From: Candidatus Nanoarchaeia archaeon
Lineage (GTDB): Archaea; Nanobdellota; Nanobdellia; SCGC-AAA011-G17; JAFCDX01
Direction of reading: 5' to 3'
Assembly: GCA_028716945.1 (NCBI GenBank)
Contig: JAQUOT010000001.1
Location: 187,927-251,926 of the forward strand
Length of the DNA: 64,000 nt
Shown here one piece after another: positions 1-63,618 of the stretch. Each line of letters begins with the position of its first letter. The stretch's first letter is position 1. The notes under the pieces were generated by a model. The model did not search any database and had not been told where the DNA came from. It saw only the letters and a program-made list of their open reading frames with translations. The position numbers were made by a program, and so were the translations under genes.

Positions 1-1146
1 GTGCACAAAAATTCCACTATACGGATTAAAATTTATAATTTGACTATAATAATAATTTCCAGAATTATCACCTGCCTCATCAACCCAAGTTTCTTTTTTT
101 AATAATCTTTTTAATTCTAAAGAAGTAATTGTAGGTTTGATATTAAATAATGATTTTCCAAGAGTTAATTTATTTTGAGGAGTTTCAATTAAATAAGAAT
201 CATCACAAATTTTGTTTCCTGTTTGAACATTATCAAGAGTAGAAATACATTCTACTTTTTTAGTTAAGGTTATACTATTTGTTCCTATATTTAATACTAA
301 TTTTGAATCTATATCTTGTATTGTTGTGGGTACATTTGGTGTAAAAGCTATATTTGAATATTCATCTCCAACACTTAAAATTTTAATATTTATTTTTTTA
401 GTATTCCAATTTACTTTTGTTATCATAAATTTATCCATTTTATTTTCATGACAAGATTCGAAACAAACTCCTACAGGTGTTGAAATAGCTACTCCTTTAC
501 CAGAAGATTCTAATAATGCAGTACAAGAAGTTAGACTTGAAATTTTACAAGCACCATTTTCACAACCATTTGGACAAGTATAATAATCCCAAGCAACATT
601 TCCTCCAGAACAATAAGCTTCTGCTAAACGATTTGGATATAAAATTTGATCAGAACAACCATCATAATAAACTGCTCCCAAAGTATCTTTAACATTTCCA
701 GCAGTAAAATAATCTTTTTCATTATCAGAATCTACACAAGTATTAGCTGCAGATGTTGATAATGTAACACATTTTCCTCCAACACATTTTTTATTATATT
801 GAGAACAATCTACTTCAGCAAAATTAGAATTAATACTTTTACAATACCCTTCTATTAAAATATTGGTGTTATCTCCATATTTACAATAATCCCATCCAGT
901 AGTAGACGTAAATAAATTAGTTCCCAAACCATTTTTTGCATCGATTTTACCTTGAACATCTAAATTCCAATAACTAGAACTAGAACCATCTGATTTTATA
1001 CATGAATAAGTAGAAGCTTCTAAAGTTCTTGTATTATCTGAATTTGTTCCAAATAAATTAGTTAAAAAATTATTTATTGAAAAAGCAAATACAATTGGAG
1101 TTACTAAGATTAATAATAAAGAAAGTACAATCAAGCTCTTTTTCAT
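1..1146 (-). CDS. Giant Cys-rich secreted surface protein, N-terminal part (gene continues past window start); paralogue of 1187..3832
   Basis: Minus-strand ATG at 1144-1146. First about 61 codons and upstream 36 bp are identical to the 1187..3832 gene. Translation MKKSLIVLSLLLILVTPIVFAFS... is a signal peptide, followed by a 6-Cys domain (...CVDSDNEKDY...YYDGC...LAEAYCSGG...YTCPNGCENGAC) at about 558-760. Confidence 0.5.
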   Translation of the reverse strand, partial: MKKSLIVLSLLLILVTPIVFAFSINNFLTNLFGTNSDNTRTLEASTYSCIKSDGSSSSYWNLDVQGKIDAKNGLGTNLFTSTTGWDYCKYGDNTNILIEGYCKSINSNFAEVDCSQYNKKCVGGKCVTLSTSAANTCVDSDNEKDYFTAGNVKDTLGAVYYDGCSDQILYPNRLAEAYCSGGNVAWDYYTCPNGCENGACKISSLTSCTALLESSGKGVAISTPVGVCFESCHENKMDKFMITKVNWNTKKINIKILSVGDEYSNIAFTPNVPTTIQDIDSKLVLNIGTNSITLTKKVECISTLDNVQTGNKICDDSYLIETPQNKLTLGKSLFNIKPTITSLELKRLLKKETWVDEAGDNSGNYYYSQIINFNPYSGIFVH

Positions 1147-1182
1147 ATAAATAATATTAAAATTTATATATTTAAATCTTTT
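963..1182 (-). repeat. About 220-bp direct repeat, copy A (100% identical to 3647..3868): promoter plus signal peptide plus first about 60 codons
   Basis: Base-by-base comparison of 963-1182 with 3647-3868 shows identity, with sharp divergence on both sides. Confidence 0.85.
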
Positions 1183-1186
1183 GTTT

Positions 1187-3832
1187 TTATTTTTTAGAAG
1201 AAAGTTCAAGTCTAGCTTTTTGTTGGTTTCTTATTTTTTTGAAAATATAATCTAATTGGTTTTTCTTCCAACCTTTTTTAACCAAAGCATCTTTAATATC
1301 AATTTCAGATTTTTTATCTGCCAATTGTTTTTTAACATATGCTTCTAATTTTATTTCTTGTTCTTTATTTGAAATTGGAGATCCTCTTTTTATTATATAA
1401 TATTGCCAATATATGAAAACTCCAACAATTACAACTACTACAAATAATATTATTAAAATATACCATGGGAAACTTGATCCACAATCGGCCTTACACCATC
1501 CCTCTTCTAATGGATGACATACTCCATCTCCACATTGATATTCTGGTTCTTCAGTTATTTCTGTTTTAGTTGTAATAGAACATTGTTCTGAAGTAGAACT
1601 TAACTGATTTCCTGTGGTTGTATCATAAGTATAAACTGTTCTTGTTCCTATTCCATCTCCTTCGGGATCTATACAATCTCCTAATCTCTGTTCGTAAGAA
1701 CTTTGACTAGCCATAACAGAAGTTATTATACTACAAATTCCACCAATACAACATTTAACTGAATCTGATGAAGCTACAGAAATAAATTGTCCGGTTGTTC
1801 CAGTACATTGTTGATTTTCTAAACATATTTGTCCATCTAAATTATTACAAGTATAATCAGAATAATCTATTGTAAGTTCTTTACATTGCCCAGTACTAAG
1901 ATCTCTTGATTGACAAGACACACATTCTTCATCTTCTAAAGTACAAGTAGTAGTACAACTTGGATCACATGCATCTCCTTTCCCATCATTATCACAATCT
2001 GCTTGATCCTCATTATAAATGTATATGCAATTATCTTCATCATCACAAATTCCATCTTCATCATAATCATCTTCACATTCTAAGCAAGCAGCATTAGATA
2101 CACAAGCACTATCTGCACAATCTGTTAATCCATTACAATTATTATCAATATTATCAGTACAACTAGTTTCTGATTGAGCACAAGAAGAAGGGGTACATCC
2201 TCCATTATTACATCCATACCCATATGTTTGACAATCAACAACTAAAGTCCATACATTATTTTTACATTCTTGTACATTAGTTCCTAAACATCTTAACTGA
2301 TTTTCTTGACAAACAGCAGCTATACAACTTGTAGCAGATGTACAACAATTTAAACAATCACTTACTCCAGTTATAAGACTAGAACATGTTTGTCCAGATG
2401 TACAACAAACACCATTTTTTTGAGCACAAGTTTGTGAATTAGAAGAAGTAGTACCACATTGATTAGCAGTGCCTGCACCACCACAAGTTTCAGCAGCACT
2501 AACATTACAAGTTAATGTCCCTGTTTTAGATAGATTAGTTCCACAATTTGTTGAAACAATTTTATTTCCACAAAACGAACTTAGGTCTGGAGTAAATATA
2601 ATGGGAGTACATCCACTTCCTCCTACGCCTGCAGCACCACTAACAGTACAACTTTTAATTAATGAAAATTGATTAGTACATGCAGCATCTGTACAATATT
2701 GTTGCCCACCTATACCGGGATTAAAAACTTGACAAATAGACCAAGTTGAACAAGTTGATGTTGTACAAACTCCTTTAGATCCACTTCCTCCTGAAGAAGA
2801 AATATTTGAACTATTAATTTTTTTACAAAGGGTACCAATATCTCCTATATCTCCAACATTACATTTTGAATTTGGTACATATGTTGTACAATTATAAGTA
2901 GTATTTACCCACCTTGTTCCTCCACAATAATAAAAATTTCCAGAGGTACATAAATATTTTCCCCTCATACCAGCAGTACAATTTATTCCATTAAAGTTAA
3001 TTTGAGAAGTATCTCCACAAGTTTTAGCAGTAAATACTACTTTATTTGACAAAGCTCCATTCCATACCCAAACAACATATTTTTGTCCAGGTTCTAAAAC
3101 ATAACTTGGAGATAAGGGTTGTACATTTCCAGCTACATCTCCAGAACCGGTTAATTTTATATTAAACTCATTAAGTGTAAAGGTTTCGGTTGCTTTTGAT
3201 GTATCTTTTACTTCTATAGCATAATAGGTTGATGTAGAAGGATCTGCATTACTTATTTCTCCTTTAAAAACATCAATACTATAAGTTCCACTACTAGGAA
3301 CACTTCCACCACTAAAAGTTATATTTACTTTTGATTTAGTTCCTTCACAAGAAGTTGTAATAGTTGAAGATAAAGTTACGGGGGTTATTATACTTCCTGC
3401 TCCACCCGAAGTTGTGGGTGTAACACATTTTCCACTGCTACATATTTTACCATAATCAGAACAATCTATTTTTCCAATATAAAATGAATTTACAGTATTT
3501 CCACAATACCATTCTCCTAAAAGAGTACCTGTAGTATCTTGTCCAATATCTTTAAGACAATAATCAGAACCTACTACTTGGGTTGTAGAGCTAGAACCAA
3601 TCGCAGAAGTAGTTAATGTAATTTTACTAATTTTACCTTGGATATTATAATTCCAATAACTAGAACTAGAACCATCTGATTTTATACATGAATAAGTAGA
3701 AGCTTCTAAAGTTCTTGTATTATCTGAATTTGTTCCAAATAAATTAGTTAAAAAATTATTTATTGAAAAAGCAAATACAATTGGAGTTACTAAGATTAAT
3801 AATAAAGAAAGTACAATCAAGCTCTTTTTCAT
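1187..3832 (-). CDS. Giant Cys-rich surface protein (signal peptide, many Cys-rich and beta-rich repeats, C-terminal TM helix, short basic cytoplasmic tail)
   Basis: ORF track 1187..3877. I moved the start to Met-16 (ATG 3830-3832) because everything upstream is the conserved promoter shared with the copy at 1146. C-terminus has the TM helix FPWYILIILFVVVVIVGVFIYW plus a lysine-rich tail. Confidence 0.6.
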   Translation of the reverse strand: MKKSLIVLSLLLILVTPIVFAFSINNFLTNLFGTNSDNTRTLEASTYSCIKSDGSSSSYWNYNIQGKISKITLTTSAIGSSSTTQVVGSDYCLKDIGQDTTGTLLGEWYCGNTVNSFYIGKIDCSDYGKICSSGKCVTPTTSGGAGSIITPVTLSSTITTSCEGTKSKVNITFSGGSVPSSGTYSIDVFKGEISNADPSTSTYYAIEVKDTSKATETFTLNEFNIKLTGSGDVAGNVQPLSPSYVLEPGQKYVVWVWNGALSNKVVFTAKTCGDTSQINFNGINCTAGMRGKYLCTSGNFYYCGGTRWVNTTYNCTTYVPNSKCNVGDIGDIGTLCKKINSSNISSSGGSGSKGVCTTSTCSTWSICQVFNPGIGGQQYCTDAACTNQFSLIKSCTVSGAAGVGGSGCTPIIFTPDLSSFCGNKIVSTNCGTNLSKTGTLTCNVSAAETCGGAGTANQCGTTSSNSQTCAQKNGVCCTSGQTCSSLITGVSDCLNCCTSATSCIAAVCQENQLRCLGTNVQECKNNVWTLVVDCQTYGYGCNNGGCTPSSCAQSETSCTDNIDNNCNGLTDCADSACVSNAACLECEDDYDEDGICDDEDNCIYIYNEDQADCDNDGKGDACDPSCTTTCTLEDEECVSCQSRDLSTGQCKELTIDYSDYTCNNLDGQICLENQQCTGTTGQFISVASSDSVKCCIGGICSIITSVMASQSSYEQRLGDCIDPEGDGIGTRTVYTYDTTTGNQLSSTSEQCSITTKTEITEEPEYQCGDGVCHPLEEGWCKADCGSSFPWYILIILFVVVVIVGVFIYWQYYIIKRGSPISNKEQEIKLEAYVKKQLADKKSEIDIKDALVKKGWKKNQLDYIFKKIRNQQKARLELSSKK

Positions 3833-3868
3833 ATAAATAATATTAAAATTTATATATTTAAATCTTTT
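3647..3868 (-). repeat. About 220-bp direct repeat, copy B (promoter and signal-peptide cassette)
   Basis: Identical to 963..1182. Confidence 0.85.
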
Positions 3869-3873
3869 TATTT

Positions 3874-5895
3874 TCAAAATAAAGGTTTTATTCTGGTTTC
3901 TTTCAAAGCTTCCTTAATTTGTTCCTCTTTCCACCCTTTTATTCTTAAAGAACTTATAATTTGTTCTTTTGGAATACCTTGATTTATTTTAACTTGAATA
4001 TAATTTGATAATCTTGCTAAACTTAATTCTTTTTCAATATCGGATTGTGGCCAACCTGCTCTTTCTAATTCCTCTTTTATATTCTTCAAAGGAACTTTTG
4101 CATTTAAAGATTTTTGAATATATTCTTTCATTTTTTCAACATTAACAGGTCTTACTTTTATTGTAGGTTCTTGTTTTATTTCTTTTACAAAAGTTTGAGG
4201 AGCAACTTCTTTTGGTTGAACTATCGGACTTGATTCTTCAACAACTGCTCTTTTTCTTTGTACATAAGTATAAATTATAATTACTAAAATCATAATGAAA
4301 ACTATTCCAGAAATTAAACTTACTCCAATAAGCACCTTATTTGATTTATTTTCAAGATTAGTGTTAGTACCTAAATTAACATTTGTAGTTGTTCCTGCTA
4401 AAACAGTAGAAGTACAAGAAATAGAACAGCAAATTCCTGATCCCGAATGTAATAAAGTAGAACTACTACAAGTTTGATTACTTCCACAAACATAACCATT
4501 TTCTAAAGAGCAAGAACAATCTGAATCTCCTCCAACGCAAGATATAGAACAACCATCATTTATTCCACAAGTAGAACCAGTACAAGATTCATTAATTGCA
4601 GGTCTTCCTGTTAAAGTTCCACAATTATTTTCATCAATACAAGTTCTTGTTCTTACATTATTAACACAAGAAGTCCAATTTGTACAATTCCAAGTTTCAG
4701 AACAGGAAGAAGTAGAATTTGTAATATTAATTAAGAATAAATTACCAACAACATACAATCCTAAACTATCATTAGCACTAAATCTTATTAAATTGGTTCC
4801 AGTCCAGTTTGCTTTTGGAACAAATTCTGCTTCATCATTAGAATTTATAAAAATAGAAATAGAATTATTTCCGGTGAAATTATAAATTAATTTTTGTCCA
4901 TCTGGTTCTGAGAAATAATCCTCTAATTCTAAACTATCATTGGTATTTTTTCTCCAAGACATATTATCAAAATTATCTTTTAATATAGGAGGAGAATTTA
5001 ACATATCAATACTGCTTGAATTTACATAAGTTCCTTTAATCGTATCGTTAGCACTAATAGTACATGTCCATTCATCTATATGACTTTCAGTTATCTGTAC
5101 AGAAATATTACAAGATTTTCCATTTACCCAAGAATCTCCAGAACAAGATACATCTCCAGATTTAAATGGACTAGCAAAATTAGTTTCATTCCACAAAATG
5201 TATTTAACATTAACAGTACTACTATCCGTATCTTTAACAATAGAAGAACAATTTACATAATCTTTTACTCTAAACTTATTTGAACCAGTTAAATTAGTAA
5301 AAGAAACATCTGTTATTGTAGGAGGATTAGTTGTTACAGGAGCAGAAACTGTAAAACTTTTTGTATCTGAAATTAAAACATCTGCACTGTAATTTAAAAT
5401 GAATTCTAAAGTATAAGTTCCAGCACTTAAGGCAGATAATCCAGAAAAAGCAGATATAGGAGTACTTACAGTAACTTCAGAAAGCGTTGAAAATGCTCTT
5501 CCAGGTTGTTCAGGATTTTCCCAAGCCCAATCAGGACTATCATGACTTCCATCTTTAAAAATTTGACCATCAATACAATTTTTTGGATTTGCATTTGAGT
5601 TAGTTAAAAAATTTTCTAAAGTTAGAGTACTACGTTGTATAACTTGGTCTCCAGAATCTTTTATACCTATATAAACATTTGAAGACCCATTACAAGGAAT
5701 AACATCGCCTGCTAAAAATTTTATTGAAATATCTCCAGTTAATGATTGCCCTGCAGTTATAGTATCTAAATCAATATTATCTTTAACAACGTTTCCAGTA
5801 ATAGATGGCTTCATTAACATAAAAACTAAAAATGAGAATACAAATATTGCAAATATAAAAACGCTCAATTCTCTATCTTTTTTAATATGTACCAC
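3874..5895 (-). CDS. Large surface protein: signal anchor, Ig/PKD-like beta domains, Cys-rich stalk, TM helix, cytoplasmic tail with repeated K-G-W-x-x-Q motif
   Basis: 673-aa ORF. N-terminal hydrophobic segment; C-terminal Cys-rich region (CSETWNCTNWTSC...), then TM helix VLIGVSLISGIVFIMILVIIIY and a tail carrying ...RAGWPQSDIEKEL... and ...RIKGWKEEQIKEAL... Confidence 0.55.
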   Translation of the reverse strand: MVHIKKDRELSVFIFAIFVFSFLVFMLMKPSITGNVVKDNIDLDTITAGQSLTGDISIKFLAGDVIPCNGSSNVYIGIKDSGDQVIQRSTLTLENFLTNSNANPKNCIDGQIFKDGSHDSPDWAWENPEQPGRAFSTLSEVTVSTPISAFSGLSALSAGTYTLEFILNYSADVLISDTKSFTVSAPVTTNPPTITDVSFTNLTGSNKFRVKDYVNCSSIVKDTDSSTVNVKYILWNETNFASPFKSGDVSCSGDSWVNGKSCNISVQITESHIDEWTCTISANDTIKGTYVNSSSIDMLNSPPILKDNFDNMSWRKNTNDSLELEDYFSEPDGQKLIYNFTGNNSISIFINSNDEAEFVPKANWTGTNLIRFSANDSLGLYVVGNLFLINITNSTSSCSETWNCTNWTSCVNNVRTRTCIDENNCGTLTGRPAINESCTGSTCGINDGCSISCVGGDSDCSCSLENGYVCGSNQTCSSSTLLHSGSGICCSISCTSTVLAGTTTNVNLGTNTNLENKSNKVLIGVSLISGIVFIMILVIIIYTYVQRKRAVVEESSPIVQPKEVAPQTFVKEIKQEPTIKVRPVNVEKMKEYIQKSLNAKVPLKNIKEELERAGWPQSDIEKELSLARLSNYIQVKINQGIPKEQIISSLRIKGWKEEQIKEALKETRIKPLF

Positions 5896-5934
5896 CTCTC
5901 CTTATATTTAATAACAATAAGCGGTATATAAAAT

Positions 5935-6486
5935 TTATTCTTTATGCTCTTTTATGATTTCTGCTTGAAATTTGTATATTTTTACAAATTTGTCCTTCCA
6001 AAAGTTCTCTGACAACCCTGCTTTATAACATAAGGAATCCAAAAACTCAGTCAAATTCATTTTATGTTCAATAGGAACTTGGGGCAATAACAATCCTTTT
6101 CTTCCCAAATATTCTATAATTAATCCATCTTTTCCAAGTTTTATTTTCTTCAAATATTCTTCTGGAGTTTTTACTTTGATTAATTTAGGAATTGTTAATA
6201 TTGAAATTTCTATGGAAAACTTTTCTCCTTGTTTTAAAGATTCAAATCTATTATCAGAGAATGCAGCAAATCTCGCGGCTTCTGCAATGCTTTTTCCAAG
6301 AATATTATAAGGTTCAATAAAACCAATACACCCTTTTAATTTTCTTTTGGAATATAAAGTAACAAAAACACCTTTTTTTTCTTTGAATTTATTTAATTCT
6401 TTTTCATCAATTTCCTTACCAGAAAAATAAGTTTCTATGGATTTTCTAGCTAACTCTAATAATTTCTTAGCTTGCAATTTATTCAT
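5935..6486 (-). CDS. AMMECR1-domain protein
   Basis: 183 aa with the conserved ...KLKGCIGFIEP... core typical of the AMMECR1 family. Confidence 0.6.
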   Translation of the reverse strand: MNKLQAKKLLELARKSIETYFSGKEIDEKELNKFKEKKGVFVTLYSKRKLKGCIGFIEPYNILGKSIAEAARFAAFSDNRFESLKQGEKFSIEISILTIPKLIKVKTPEEYLKKIKLGKDGLIIEYLGRKGLLLPQVPIEHKMNLTEFLDSLCYKAGLSENFWKDKFVKIYKFQAEIIKEHKE

Positions 6487-6508
6487 ACAAAATTAAAGAA
6501 TTACAAAT

Positions 6509-6766
6509 TTATAATCTTTTAGATTCTTTTCTTAATTCATCTACTATTTTCTTAAGCGAAGAAATAGTGCTTGTTAATGATTTTTTAGGATCTTTGCTTT
6601 CTACTATAAATACTGGACTACTAGTTAAAGGATGTTCTACTTTATAACCTGCTATATCCGAATTTTTAGTTAATTCTTTTCTTAAAACATTACAAAGAGT
6701 ATGATTTTCTCCTTTGATTTCAAATTTTAACTTTGTTTTTGTTTGTTCTAAAATATTGAGTTCCAT
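6509..6766 (-). CDS. rpoL: DNA-directed RNA polymerase subunit L (Rpo11)
   Basis: 85 aa. ...GENHTLCNVLRKEL...AGYKVEHPL... matches the Rpo11/RpoL signature (HTLGNxLR...Y..HPL). Confidence 0.6.
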   Translation of the reverse strand: MELNILEQTKTKLKFEIKGENHTLCNVLRKELTKNSDIAGYKVEHPLTSSPVFIVESKDPKKSLTSTISSLKKIVDELRKESKRL

Positions 6767-6805
6767 TTTTCTTTTAATATATGTAATTCAGTATATAGTT
6801 CTTTT

Positions 6806-7282
6806 TTAAACCTTTCGTTTCTCTTTTATATTTAACAAATCCCCTATTTTTAAAGTACCATCTTTTAAATTTAAACTAGGTTTATGGGTTTCAGGATTGA
6901 CATAATATGCCTTAAAAGTGTCTATCAATTTTATACTTAATATTTTCTCTATATTTTTAGCCATTCTAAAAGTAGGTACTAATTTATTGGATTCTAAATT
7001 TCTAATAGTAATAATTCTATCATACATTTTATTTGCTAAATCTTCTTCTGTCCAGTTTAATTTTAATCTAGCATTTTTAATTCTTGAAGAGAAATCAGGA
7101 ACAATCATTTCATTTTCTTCTTCTTTTTGTAATTCCAGAATTTTTTCTTCTATTTCTTTTGGTTTTATTTCAACAGCTTTTCCAAGAGCAATACAATTAG
7201 AACAAGCTTTAATTAAAACTCCTTCAAAAATAGCTTCTCTTGTTTCGCATTCCTTTTTATTACAAACTGCACAATTATTCAT
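6806..7282 (-). CDS. mbf1: Archaeal multiprotein bridging factor 1 (Zn-ribbon plus XRE-type HTH)
   Basis: N-terminal C-x2-C...C-x2-C (CAVCNKKEC...CSNC), then an HTH segment IKNARLKLNWTEEDLANKM. Confidence 0.5.
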   Translation of the reverse strand: MNNCAVCNKKECETREAIFEGVLIKACSNCIALGKAVEIKPKEIEEKILELQKEEENEMIVPDFSSRIKNARLKLNWTEEDLANKMYDRIITIRNLESNKLVPTFRMAKNIEKILSIKLIDTFKAYYVNPETHKPSLNLKDGTLKIGDLLNIKEKRKV

Positions 7283-7949
7283 TTTTTACAAGAGCAAATA
7301 CTTCTCCAACGCTTGTAAAACCTTCTTTTTTATCTTTATTATTTACTATTATTGTTGGTGCTTTTGTAATATTATAATAATTCTTTACTAAATTCAAAGT
7401 TGGCTCATCAAATTGTCTATCTATAGAAAATATCTTAATATTAATATCTTGTCTATTTGCTAAATTATCTAAAACATAACCCTGCTTTATTGAATTATCC
7501 TCTTCCAAATCATAAAAATATAAAATAATATTTTGTTTATTATCACATTTTTTATTATAATCTATGAAAAGAGAATAAGCCCTTATTTCAAGTAAAAAAT
7601 ATTGTTCTCTTAATGAATCATATTCTTTTTCTTTTAATATATTTTTATCATCATATTCCATTAACCTCTGTCCTAAATCATATAAATTTCCAGAACTTGA
7701 AGAAAGTCTTTCTTTTATTAAATTACAATTTCCTATATCTAAGGATTCTAAGAATTGTTGCTCAACAAAAATGCTGATTATATCTAAATTATTTTGGTTT
7801 AAATTATAAGCAACATCACTTGTTCTTAAATCATCCCAAATTTTTGCAGTATAAAATCCTAATAGAAATATAGCTACAGTAATTACTAGCGCTGTTATGA
7901 AAATATCTTTTCTTATCTTTGGCATTTTACCATTTCCTCTTAGCCCCAA
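7275..7949 (-). CDS. Membrane-anchored hypothetical protein (N-terminal TM), last gene of the glycosyltransferase cluster
   Basis: 224 aa with a single N-terminal hydrophobic helix. Overlaps both neighbouring genes. Confidence 0.3.
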   Translation of the reverse strand: MGLRGNGKMPKIRKDIFITALVITVAIFLLGFYTAKIWDDLRTSDVAYNLNQNNLDIISIFVEQQFLESLDIGNCNLIKERLSSSSGNLYDLGQRLMEYDDKNILKEKEYDSLREQYFLLEIRAYSLFIDYNKKCDNKQNIILYFYDLEEDNSIKQGYVLDNLANRQDINIKIFSIDRQFDEPTLNLVKNYYNITKAPTIIVNNKDKKEGFTSVGEVFALVKNE

Positions 7950-17188: not shown

Positions 17189-17338
17189 GGAGCGGTAGCT
17201 CAGAAAGGTTTTGAAGTTTAAGACCTTGAGCAACCTGGGAGAGCATAGAAATATCTCAAACCACGCTGAAGCCGTGGATGAAAGGTTATACGTCTAGTAT
17301 ACCTTGCCAAATCGGGGGTTCAAATCCCCCTCGCTCCA
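17189..17338 (+). tRNA. tRNA-Phe (anticodon GAA) with three insertions: D-loop about 27 nt, 16 nt at position 26/27, about 31 nt in the variable region
   Basis: Manual fold: acceptor GGAGCGG/TCGCTCC (G-U at pair 7), D-stem GCTC/GAGC, anticodon arm CCACG-CTGAAGC-CGTGG, T-arm GGGGG-TTCAAAT-CCCCC, discriminator A. The variable-region insert forms a hairpin TATAC-gtcta-GTATA. Confidence 0.5.
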
Positions 17339-18026
17339 TTTTCTTTATATTTTTAATATTAGAACTTCTTATTAATTTAATAAAAGAGGAGGCATTATTA
17401 TAACCGCTTATTTGTATTTTATATTTTTCATACCTTTTATTAGTTCTTTTATCTATATAATTTTCATGTCCTACATAATGATCTATCTTTTGAATTTTAA
17501 TCCAATCAGATATTTTGTATATTAAATTTTTATCTTTTAGACCAAGATTAATAACTGGATAAAATTTATATTTTCCGTGATTCTTTTTTAAACACAAAGA
17601 ACCATCTGTATCAAAAATTCCTTTAATGAATGCTTTAGCATAAATTTTATTATCCCATATCCATCGAGGAACCTTATTTCTATAATTTATTTTTTTATAA
17701 CCTATAATATTAAGAAAAGATAATATCCCTTTAGATCTCTTTGTTAAGATTAAAGTATTAATCTTTTTCTTTTGATATAAATTCATCTTTACATTGAATA
17801 AAAACAAAACTTTATCTTTAATATAGTTTGAATAATTCCTCTCATCTTTGAGATTACTAAAAATAGAAAAAATATAATCATTGCTTCCTAAATTATAATA
17901 AACATGGCCATCTCCAGACAAAATACCTAAAAATTCTGACAAGTCTCTAGAAGAGGATTTAGGAAAAATAATTTTATTCTTAATATCTTGGTGACTTAGT
18001 TGAATATCTGATAAATCAAATTTCAT
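17286..18026 (-). CDS. LAGLIDADG-family homing-endonuclease-like protein, copy 1
   Basis: Motifs LGILSGDGHV and KGIFDTDGSL (two LAGLIDADG-type helices, so a single-chain enzyme). Start set at MKFDLSDI (ATG 18024-18026) because upstream sequence is conserved non-coding in copy 2. The last about 17 codons are antisense to the tRNA-Phe 3' half. Confidence 0.55.
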   Translation of the reverse strand: MKFDLSDIQLSHQDIKNKIIFPKSSSRDLSEFLGILSGDGHVYYNLGSNDYIFSIFSNLKDERNYSNYIKDKVLFLFNVKMNLYQKKKINTLILTKRSKGILSFLNIIGYKKINYRNKVPRWIWDNKIYAKAFIKGIFDTDGSLCLKKNHGKYKFYPVINLGLKDKNLIYKISDWIKIQKIDHYVGHENYIDKRTNKRYEKYKIQISGYNNASSFIKLIRSSNIKNIKKMERGGFEPPIWQGILDV

Positions 18027-18048
18027 GATTAATAAAAAGCGAATTTGA

Positions 18049-18115
18049 TTTATAAATCTGGCGCGCACCCATCTGCAAGTTGCAATTTGTTAGAATATAT
18101 ATTTTGTGGAATATA
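18049..18115 (-). promoter_or_regulatory. Conserved about 65-bp upstream element of the LAGLIDADG paralogues (TATA box TTTATAAA about 23 nt before the ATG, plus GC-rich palindromic block)
   Basis: tttataaatctggcgcgcacccatctgcaagttgcaatttgttagaatatatatttt is nearly identical at 63404..63460. Contains palindromes GCGCGC and TTGCAA-C-TTGCAA. Confidence 0.4.
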
Positions 18116-18163
18116 GATAGACGCCTTAGAAACCTTTAAATATAATCTAAGATTAATTAAGAT

Positions 18164-55844: not shown

Positions 55845-55939
55845 AGCCCCTTAGTGTAGTGGCCAAATTGATTAAAAATCAAGGCTAGGCATACGAGACT
55901 CTGGATCTTGTGACGGAAGTTCGAATCTTCCAGGGGCTA
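55845..55939 (+). tRNA. tRNA-Gln (anticodon CUG) with about 22-nt D-arm intron
   Basis: Acceptor AGCCCCT/AGGGGCT (A1-U72 as in archaeal tRNA-Gln), anticodon arm CGAGA-CTCTGGA-TCTTG, T-arm GGAAG-TTCGAAT-CTTCC, discriminator A. D-arm insert contains hairpin TTGAT-taaaa-ATCAA. Confidence 0.55.
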
Positions 55940-55940
55940 C

Positions 55941-56013
55941 GCTCCCATAGTCTAGCGGTTAAGGATATGAGCTTCTCGAGCTCGTGACCTGGGTTCAAAT
56001 CCCAGTGGGAGCA
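55941..56013 (+). tRNA. tRNA-Glu (anticodon CUC), intronless, 1 nt downstream of tRNA-Gln
   Basis: Acceptor GCTCCCA/TGGGAGC, anticodon arm TGAGC-TTCTCGA-GCTCG, T-arm CTGGG-TTCAAAT-CCCAG. Confidence 0.65.
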
Positions 56014-63382: not shown

Positions 63383-63403
63383 AATTAAGATAAGTAAATT
63401 TCA

Positions 63404-63460
63404 TTTATAAATCTGGCGCGCACATCTTGCAAGTTGCAATTTGTTAGAATATATATTTTA
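63404..63460 (-). promoter_or_regulatory. Conserved upstream element of the LAGLIDADG paralogues, second copy
   Basis: tttataaatctggcgcgcacatcttgcaagttgcaatttgttagaatatatatttt, versus 18049..18115. Confidence 0.4.
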
Positions 63461-63488
63461 GAGAATATATTTTAAATAAAAAGAAAAG

Positions 63489-63618
63489 CGCCTTAGGGAG
63501 GACTCGAACCTCCGACCACCTGATTAACAGTCTCACCTTTCCATATTGGAAAACAGGTGCTCTACCCTTCAGATCTTCTGAACCTAAAAGGCCAGATGGT
63601 TTGCTGAGCTACTAAGGC
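63489..63618 (-). tRNA. tRNA-Asn (anticodon GUU) with two introns (about 36 nt in the D-loop; 22 nt inside the anticodon stem, position 30/31)
   Basis: Reverse complement: acceptor GCCTTAG/CTAAGGC, D-stem GCTC/GAGC. After removing ttttccaatatggaaaggtgag the anticodon arm is CCTGA-CTGTTAA-TCAGG. T-arm GGAGG-TTCGAGT-CCTCC, discriminator G. Confidence 0.5.

Follow-up and report, generated by a model that had tools for sequence, protein, structure and literature searches.

A putative free-standing LAGLIDADG homing-endonuclease cassette docked end-on to tRNA-Phe in a DPANN archaeon

The tRNA-Phe gene and its convergent LAGLIDADG reading frame

A stretch of 64,000 nucleotides from a Candidatus Nanoarchaeia archaeon (contig JAQUOT010000001.1, positions 187,927 to 251,926; hereafter the window) contains a tRNA-Phe gene with three inserts and, on the opposite strand, an open reading frame (ORF) of the LAGLIDADG endonuclease family, here called copy 1, which converges on the tRNA gene and overlaps its 3' part. 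A conserved sequence, referred to below as the block, lies upstream of copy 1. A second LAGLIDADG ORF (copy 2), headed by a block of its own, is located beside a tRNA-Asn gene, and no third LAGLIDADG gene was found in the window (Table 1). The window has a G+C content of approximately 27% and encodes aminoacyl-tRNA synthetases of archaeal type as well as ribosomal proteins; its host is a DPANN archaeon. Loci of other genomes are cited by L numbers.

The tRNA-Phe gene was recognized as a full-length tRNA by Rfam (31.6 bits; gathering score 29) and was not detected in the ARAGORN run. By using an intronless ortholog as reference (L088 5865..5939, tRNA-Phe GAA, 75 nt), inserts of 30 nt in the D-loop, 15 nt at position 26/27 and 31 nt in the variable loop at 46/47 could be delimited, so that both the Rfam match and the alignment support the triple-insert tRNA-Phe of the initial annotation. 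Folding of the pre-tRNA gave a z-score of -4.97, with a hairpin in each insert; these are helix-bulge hairpins, and canonical bulge-helix-bulge motifs were not assignable for the three.

Copy 1 extends from an ATG at 18026 to a TAA at 17286..17288, which lies within the third insert of the tRNA. The overlap comprises 26 nt of that insert, the T-arm, the acceptor 3' strand and the discriminator, and the last 17 codons (residues 230-246, MERGGFEPPIWQGILDV) are antisense tRNA. Both features had been read from the window beforehand, and the overlap is not only real but also a family trait. Fourteen database homologs were found; most of the ones with 39-52% identity end in KMGxxGFEP..., the antisense of a tRNA T-arm, and in four of the loci (L001-L004) a convergent tRNA-Phe(GAA) overlaps the ORF end. 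Over the range of 34-52% identity, relatives with such antisense tRNA-Phe tails were observed. The conserved part of the copy-1 protein ends in ...SSNIKNIKK, with the tail beyond it. Since the ORF has no stop codon of its own before it enters the stop-poor, G+C-rich tRNA, the overlap is best read as a by-product of tight docking and not as a device.

Several lines of evidence characterize the conserved region as a two-motif, single-chain LAGLIDADG protein. Copy 1 matches Pfam LAGLIDADG_3 (PF14528; E 6e-4) and carries the motifs LGILSGDG and IKGIFDTDG, in which G38-D39-G40 and D139-T140-D141-G142, including both catalytic Asp residues, are invariant in 15 aligned sequences. PDB profile matches comprise intein endonuclease domains, I-Tsp061I and I-DmoI. 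An AlphaFold2 (AF2) model (mean predicted local distance difference test, pLDDT, 89.8; predicted template modelling score 0.88) was matched by Foldseek with a probability of 1.00 to the TliVMA intein endonuclease, PI-PfuI, I-Tsp061I, I-AniI, I-OnuI, I-SceI and I-DmoI, and model and matches together display the double alpha-beta-beta-alpha-beta-beta-alpha fold. The 17-residue antisense-tRNA tail is predicted to be disordered, with pLDDT values below 61 for residues 231-246. Neither an intron- nor an intein-encoded status was found for copy 1, whose ORF runs on the strand opposite to the tRNA and beyond its exons and inserts; because only its tail enters insert 3 and it has its own TATA box, it is regarded as free-standing. 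We infer a nuclease activity and a target for this protein, as well as a factor that binds the block.

Table 1. Features of the copy-1 and copy-2 loci in the window
Feature	Position	Strand	Basis or remarks
tRNA-Phe(GAA), three inserts (~17204..17233, 17245..17259, 17281..17311)	17189..17338	+	Rfam, ortholog alignment
LAGLIDADG ORF copy 1, 246 aa (residues 1-229, conserved enzyme; 230-246, read-through tail antisense to the tRNA)	17286..18026	-	Pfam PF14528, family alignment, AF2, Foldseek
Convergent overlap of copy-1 ORF 3' end and tRNA-Phe 3' part, 53 nt	17286..17338		Read off the sequence
Cassette 1, ~785 bp (ORF body, 5' region and block)	~17339..18126	-	Missing at orthologous sites
Upstream block, copy 1	18048..18115	-	TATA box TTTATAAA 18049..18056; GC-rich GTGCGCGCCAG 18058..18068; TTGCAACTTGCA 18074..18085; AT-rich AAAATATATATTCTAAC upstream
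CTAAGGCG, 8-nt tRNA-Asn 3'-end relic	18122..18129	-	Upstream edge of cassette 1
LAGLIDADG ORF copy 2, 232 aa	62684..63382	-	Pfam PF14528, E 2.6e-9
Upstream block, copy 2	63403..63469	-	TATA 63404..63411
tRNA-Asn(GTT), two inserts (~35 nt in D-loop, ~22 nt in anticodon stem)	63489..63618	-	Immediately before block copy 2, in the same direction; alignment to the intronless gene in L087

A probable promoter block shared by divergent LAGLIDADG genes

The near-identity of the blocks before copies 1 and 2 was confirmed, with 63 of 69 aligned columns identical. Exact 21- and 22-mers are common to 18048..18095 and 63403..63449 and occur nowhere else in the window, none being expected by chance (none in 100 shuffles), and no further block copy was found in the window at up to 3 mismatches. 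The two proteins are 28% identical overall. Their first eight residues (MKFDLSDI) are the same, as had been noted, although the codons themselves are not, three of them differing synonymously (AAA/AAG, TCA/TCT, GAT/GAC). The supposed GC-rich palindrome also had to be corrected, as it amounts to a GCGCGC hexamer located beside two adjacent TTGCAA hexamers.

A metagenome search with the block led to a related genome (a 766-kb contig that includes L085, L087 and L088). Five block copies are now available from three genomes: W1 and W2 (copies 1 and 2 of the window), L085 and L087 from the related genome, and L138. They share the invariant core TATATTC-n3-AAAATATATATT(C/G)TA..AAATTGCAACTTGCA-n4/5-GTGCGCGC..G.TTTA(T/A)AA. 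The five LAGLIDADG proteins that follow are at most 34% identical to one another or barely alignable. Conservation of the block is above neutral, in that the stretch between TATA box and ATG is variable, and the 5' region, synonymous sites and ORF bodies diverge while the core is invariant. Between the window and the related genome, copy 2 of the block and the L085 block are 100% identical over 74 nt. By comparison, the segments at the shared tRNA-Asn site that blastn can align between these genomes are ~90-94% identical. The block was never met without an attached LAGLIDADG ORF, and it occupies one side of the gene only. Another metagenome match, L086, was discarded as a chance match in a GC-rich bacterial contig. 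Structured RNA was also considered and rejected for the block, with z-scores of 0.03 to 1.06 on both strands of both copies and no Rfam match at E <=1.

The position of the block is that of a promoter. For the two copies in the window, the distance from TATA centre to ATG is 25.5-26.5 nt (26.5 nt in copy 1), and the ATG follows the TATA box by 21-23 nt in four block copies and by ~22 nt, as read from the sequence, in L138; the same spacing was observed in L001 and L002. This spacing fits a transcription start at or near the ATG, and the ORF is probably leaderless. The upstream edge of cassette 1 is formed by CTAAGGCG, which matches exactly, and aligns in register with, the 3' end of the tRNA-Asn gene before block copy 2; such a match would occur by chance at a fixed offset with a probability of ~2e-6 (estimated from base composition). 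It follows that cassette 1 acquired its upstream part by copying from a tRNA-Asn-side cassette, and that gene conversion between cassettes contributes to the uniformity of the block.

A different element is found at the same upstream position in other DPANN lineages. At least 17 other DPANN loci contain a CACTGGACA box at about -52, followed by 13-15 nt, often GTG.GC.C-like, and then by the TATA box. The box is highly concentrated in these upstream regions, with 19 matches in 8.4 kb (100-nt upstream windows) versus 23 in ~947 kb elsewhere. Orthologs at 40-50% identity in other lineages carry this box and not the block of the window. Since one block serves widely differing enzymes in a genome and orthologs elsewhere use another box, the element covaries with the genome and not with the protein. 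We therefore take the block to be this lineage's form of a promoter/operator architecture that moves along with LAGLIDADG genes, and because the element follows the genome, the factor that binds it is more likely a separate regulator than each endonuclease.

Two further observations concern this box. In L030 (3730..5335), the CACTGGACA box and a TATA box also precede a helicase ORF, which has C-terminal domains only (Helicase_C, HTH_61 and Helicase_dom4_arc) and lies downstream of the LAGLIDADG gene and a tRNA-Gln; this may represent a shared regulon or a split helicase gene. In addition, small ORFs of 54-62 aa are located between the boxed promoter and the LAGLIDADG gene in L005 (2804..2992) and L006 (2840..3004), with start and stop overlapping, and a small ORF is likewise present in L013, upstream of 2980. 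No Pfam match was found for the L005 and L006 ORFs. All three resemble small DNA-binding proteins, the ribbon-helix-helix look of those in L005 and L006 being an impression, and are possible dedicated regulators.

tRNA adjacency and the occupancy of orthologous sites

The family was surveyed with one genome per species, yielding 389 relatives; 80 loci were retrieved, from DPANN archaea and bacteria of the Candidate Phyla Radiation (CPR), and 79 of them were testable. Adjacency was defined as an ARAGORN-predicted tRNA from -110 to +50 nt of the ORF 3' end. A tRNA was present at this position in 57 of the 79 loci, compared with 13 of 277 other ORFs in the same loci. In seven more loci (W1, L007, L008, L012 and L017-L019), multi-insert tRNAs were recognized by eye, raising the count to at least 64 of 79. 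Adjacency thus amounts to 72-81% against 4.7% for control ORFs, with gaps or overlaps of 0-50 nt. An Rfam gathering search on 20 loci missed multi-insert tRNAs that were plain by eye, and the counts based on such tools are therefore lower bounds. The association of LAGLIDADG copies with tRNA genes seen in the window therefore extends to the family at large.

The partner tRNA follows the subfamily. Closest relatives of copy 1 always have tRNA-Phe as partner; other subfamilies lie beside His, Gln, Arg, Leu, Ile, Trp, Thr or initiator-Met tRNAs, and the CPR members beside co-directional tRNA-Ser (18) or tRNA-Tyr (3). The nearest relative had the same tRNA partner in 54 of 65 cases, compared with a permutation mean of 9.3 and a maximum of 23. 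The outer neighbours differ from lineage to lineage while the tRNA partner is the same, as illustrated by the valyl-tRNA synthetase (ValRS) gene in the window and an Ssb-like gene in L001, L002, L005, L006 and L045. Relatives on viral contigs, all of which lie within long ORFs and are read as intein-embedded copies, were tRNA-adjacent in 0 of 45 cases; tRNA adjacency is therefore specific to the free-standing clade. At one locus, L048, a copy of the first 21 nt of tRNA-Ser(GCT) stands on either side of the LAGLIDADG gene (2940..2960 and 3699..3719), each copy being preceded by a TTTAAAAG/CTTAAAAG promoter-like motif. This duplication marks an insertion into the D-loop of the tRNA and hence supports, for one locus, a target inside the tRNA. 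Duplication of tRNA fragments as a general rule was rejected, as it was seen in L048 only and other blastn-short matches were weak or came from neighbouring tRNAs.

Comparison of orthologous sites revealed that the cassettes are polymorphic. The gene order ValRS, tRNA-Phe, pilin-like gene and cysteinyl-tRNA synthetase is kept, collinear with the window, in L088, L136, L137, L139, L140 and L141. All six sites are empty, lacking both block and LAGLIDADG gene, and each has an intronless tRNA-Phe; the block was not found anywhere in those loci or in L088-L090. At the L088 empty site, the 75-nt tRNA-Phe is followed by a 22-nt spacer and then by TAGAAACCTTTAAATATAAT (TAGAAACCTTTAAAT...). Relative to this site, the window contains an extra segment of ~785 bp (~17339..18126), the exact breakpoints of which are ambiguous; close to either junction is one copy of a short direct repeat, TTAGAA(A)C (17359..17365, TTAGAAC; 18126..18133, TTAGAAAC). 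The cassette is thus present or absent at a defined site, as expected of a mobile element.

The same site can also be filled differently. In L138 (GCA_028717785.1, 2600..3460), the ValRS/pilin-like site holds the block and a different LAGLIDADG gene of 207 aa (PF14528, 27.9 bits) on the 5' side of a co-directional tRNA-Phe, which has a T-loop insert of ~35 nt. At the tRNA-Asn site, the window and L087 have in common the tRNA, the block, the first ~20 nt and last 12 nt of the ORF, and a DisA-like (diadenylate cyclase) gene, which the ORF overlaps at its 3' end; between these conserved flanks the ORF bodies do not align, and the proteins are 29.7% identical. Filled, differently filled, swapped and empty sites are together the pattern expected of selfish endonuclease genes. 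Co-conversion of tRNA-Phe with the cassette was considered but is not supported, as the exon identity of 66/74 is in line with that of tRNA-Asn and the flanks.

A third type of cassette was observed in L085 (7778..8720), where the block and a LAGLIDADG gene of 251 aa are divergent from the leucyl-tRNA synthetase (LeuRS) gene and the ORF stop lies in the D-loop of a co-directional, insert-bearing tRNA (Leu according to ARAGORN). No cassette is present at a more distant LeuRS locus, L090. At 968 aa, the L085 LeuRS itself (4836..7742) is longer than most of its relatives (~815 aa), whose alignment to it in one segment spans only ~46% of its length, and there appears to be a large internal insertion.

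The relationship between inserts and cassettes is much less clear. In the syntenic tRNA-Phe set, inserts occur in 2 of 2 genes with a cassette versus 0 of 6 without, a small set that is not phylogenetically independent; when other tRNA-Phe-side loci are added, the figures become 7/13 versus 0/6 (one-sided p ~0.03, not corrected for phylogeny). A crude ARAGORN test found no enrichment of inserts in cassette-adjacent tRNAs (9/37 versus 6/16, p = 0.34). Intronless partner tRNAs are common (L001, L002, L009, L011 and L013), and tRNA-Gln and tRNA-Ile of the window have inserts without any cassette. The tRNA-Asn gene of the window, missed by both ARAGORN and Rfam, has two inserts and its counterpart in L087 (2737..2810) none, with a cassette at both sites; insert content therefore varies between related genomes (~90-94% identity in alignable segments). 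A functional link between inserts and cassettes is accordingly given a low probability. The probable tRNA-Gln(CTG) of the window (55846..55938, plus strand) has a D-loop insert of ~20 nt, scores 26.9 bits in Rfam, below the gathering score, and ends 2 nt before a tRNA-Glu (55941..56013).

Proposed origin, alternatives and relation to known systems

The account that we favour, with a probability of roughly 0.6, is that copy 1 forms a free-standing cassette for a homing endonuclease, equipped with a promoter/operator of its own and docked at the end of a tRNA gene. Judging from the sequences compared here, the cassette would consist of a ~75-bp promoter/operator block and a probably leaderless ORF, and would have been inserted directly downstream of the host tRNA-Phe in convergent orientation, the ORF continuing across the T-rich trailer and then 53 nt antisense to the tRNA before it meets a chance TAA. 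The block would supply the TATA box, a region resembling a B recognition element and ~45 bp of operator-like upstream sequence; all LAGLIDADG cassettes of this lineage would share it, their likeness being kept by selection and gene conversion. The enzyme may cut cassette-free tRNA-Phe loci in or beside the tRNA gene, and repair of the break may copy the cassette in, the conserved tRNA acting both as a landmark and as a homology arm. Expression might be controlled by a trans-acting factor, probably other than the enzyme, that binds the block.

Several points weigh against this account or parts of it. The pattern of presence and absence could reflect loss instead of gain, and the junction frame shared among homologs with GFEP tails points to common descent of the junction and not to repeated insertion. 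The tracking of tRNAs by subfamilies could partly be inherited synteny. Copy 2 has its tRNA-Asn upstream and none adjacent to its 3' end. The blocks could be so alike because of gene conversion more than because of function, and the leaderless transcript is a reading of the TATA spacing.

Regarding the block, two possibilities had been put forward in the initial annotation: a dedicated operator, or the recognition or homing site of the endonucleases. The former agrees with its promoter position, its conservation above that of synonymous sites and its occurrence at the head of five LAGLIDADG genes in three genomes. A homing site might be suspected in a conserved, partly palindromic element (GCGCGC and two TTGCAA) that flanks the gene, but it should then be present where the cassette is missing; instead, the block is absent from the six empty sites and from L088-L090, is always attached to an ORF, on one side, and coincides with a TATA box at the distance for transcription to start at or near the ATG. 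It is therefore cassette cargo and not a target, and the homing-site proposal, for which we see very little chance, fails. The covariation of the element with the genome likewise speaks against recognition by each enzyme of a site of its own. An operator bound by the endonucleases themselves, as in I-TevI, is a better candidate but still an unlikely one. It would explain why the block lies on the promoter and solely with genes whose products are sequence-specific DNA binders, yet five proteins with at most 34% identity share one block, orthologs at 40-50% identity use the CACTGGACA box, and that box also precedes the L030 helicase gene; moreover, the extra small ORF between box and endonuclease gene in L005 and L006 could be the regulator.

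The association with tRNAs might also arise with no targeting at all, if the genes merely survive beside tRNAs as insertion-tolerant spots of compact genomes and the tracking of partners is inherited synteny. The density of DPANN and CPR genomes and the junction frame common to the tRNA-Phe-side homologs are in its favour, but adjacency of 72-81% versus 4.7% at distances of 0-50 nt, a constant tRNA partner among changing outer neighbours, gain or loss of cassettes between close relatives and the L048 insertion inside a tRNA, with 21 nt duplicated, make it rather improbable. Domestication is less probable again. Here the LAGLIDADG proteins would be host factors, for example maturase-like helpers for multi-intron tRNAs, which would be in keeping with intact ORFs, a conserved promoter, close tRNA linkage and the restriction of syntenic tRNA-Phe inserts to cassette-bearing sites (2/2 versus 0/6). 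However, the gene is missing in 6 of 8 syntenic genomes, one site shows a swap of alleles, intronless tRNAs are frequent among the partners and the catalytic Asp residues are kept; introns are also not enriched (9/37 versus 6/16), and inserts occur in cassette-free tRNAs of the window.

Homing endonuclease genes are usually described in introns and inteins, or as free-standing genes in phages. Copy 1 shares with the archaeal I-DmoI, I-Tsp061I, PI-PfuI and the Tli VMA intein domain, its best matches by sequence profile and by Foldseek, a two-motif single-chain fold with a catalytic Asp in each motif; whereas these enzymes, archaeal too, are encoded within rRNA introns or inteins, copy 1 is free-standing, has its own promoter and is docked end-on to a tRNA gene. 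The seg and mob genes of phage T4 likewise encode endonucleases and are selfish and intergenic; they spread when a nearby site is cut in genomes without the cassette and co-conversion follows, and SegB is associated with a tRNA gene cluster. Their products, however, are GIY-YIG and HNH enzymes of phages, while copy 1 is a LAGLIDADG gene in a cellular genome, and we know of no family-wide rule of abutting one tRNA end, and of no shared promoter block, among free-standing genes of the T4 type. I-TevI represses its own promoter through an operator that resembles its homing site. The conserved operator over a homing-endonuclease promoter is similar here, but the element follows the genome, which makes a separate regulator more likely.

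Two other comparisons may be helpful. Collaborative homing, as in cyanophage psbA, involves a free-standing endonuclease beside a gene with introns that it does not inhabit, and cassette and inserts likewise coincide at the tRNA-Phe site (2/2 versus 0/6); the inserts here are of the archaeal splicing-endonuclease type, though, and the association is statistically weak and contradicted by intronless partners. Integrase elements at tRNA genes also use tRNA ends as landmarks, and in L048 a tRNA 5' segment is duplicated, but the present cassettes have no integrase, are tiny (~0.8 kb) and mostly show no att-like duplication. In the literature consulted, PMC11270868 describes LAGLIDADG genes in rRNA insertions of CPR bacteria, PMC6125680 deals with group I introns in archaeal rRNA and PMC13011429 with those in Patescibacteria tRNAs. 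The genes of the first two reports belong to the same host groups and the same LAGLIDADG_3 family but lie inside rRNA genes, and a term search within each of the three papers returned no mention of free-standing LAGLIDADG genes abutting tRNAs or of the promoter box. The cassettes thus represent an ordinary kind of element, the homing endonuclease gene, in an apparently undescribed, family-wide arrangement, the novelty of which is provisional given incomplete literature coverage.

These results point to a positional rule in the smallest cellular genomes, by which the gene abuts a specific tRNA end and brings a portable, conserved promoter module, and they predict that tRNA genes or their borders are the cleavage targets. 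For annotation, the arrangement explains ORFs that end in antisense-tRNA peptides (GFEP) as well as insert-bearing, unannotated tRNAs. Filled, differently filled and empty sites in close genomes also provide a natural experiment on the gain, loss and swapping of cassettes, which bears on any link to the unexplained spread of non-canonical archaeal tRNA introns. A bolder extension, to which we assign little credence, is that the free-standing DPANN and CPR cassettes form a guild targeting tRNA genes, with one subfamily per tRNA body or end, which shapes tRNA architecture and obeys one host regulator. If true, inserts in the D-loop, at 26/27, in the variable loop and in the T-loop, together with partial tRNA duplications, would be immunity footprints or co-converted passengers; cassette attack would be a concrete driver of archaeal tRNA intron gain, and the promoter box common to its members would put the entire guild under a single host regulator.

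Some additional observations were made in the same data. Precomputed Pfam matches indicate inteins in the eRF1 genes of related genomes, with Intein_splicing and LAGLIDADG_3 in L136 (1..906) and weak Hint and Intein_splicing matches only in L141 (1..412). In the window, a direct repeat of 245 nt, 97% identical between its copies at 944..1188 and 3630..3874, covers the starts of two large ORFs on the minus strand (1187..3877 and 3874..5895) together with the sequence upstream of each.

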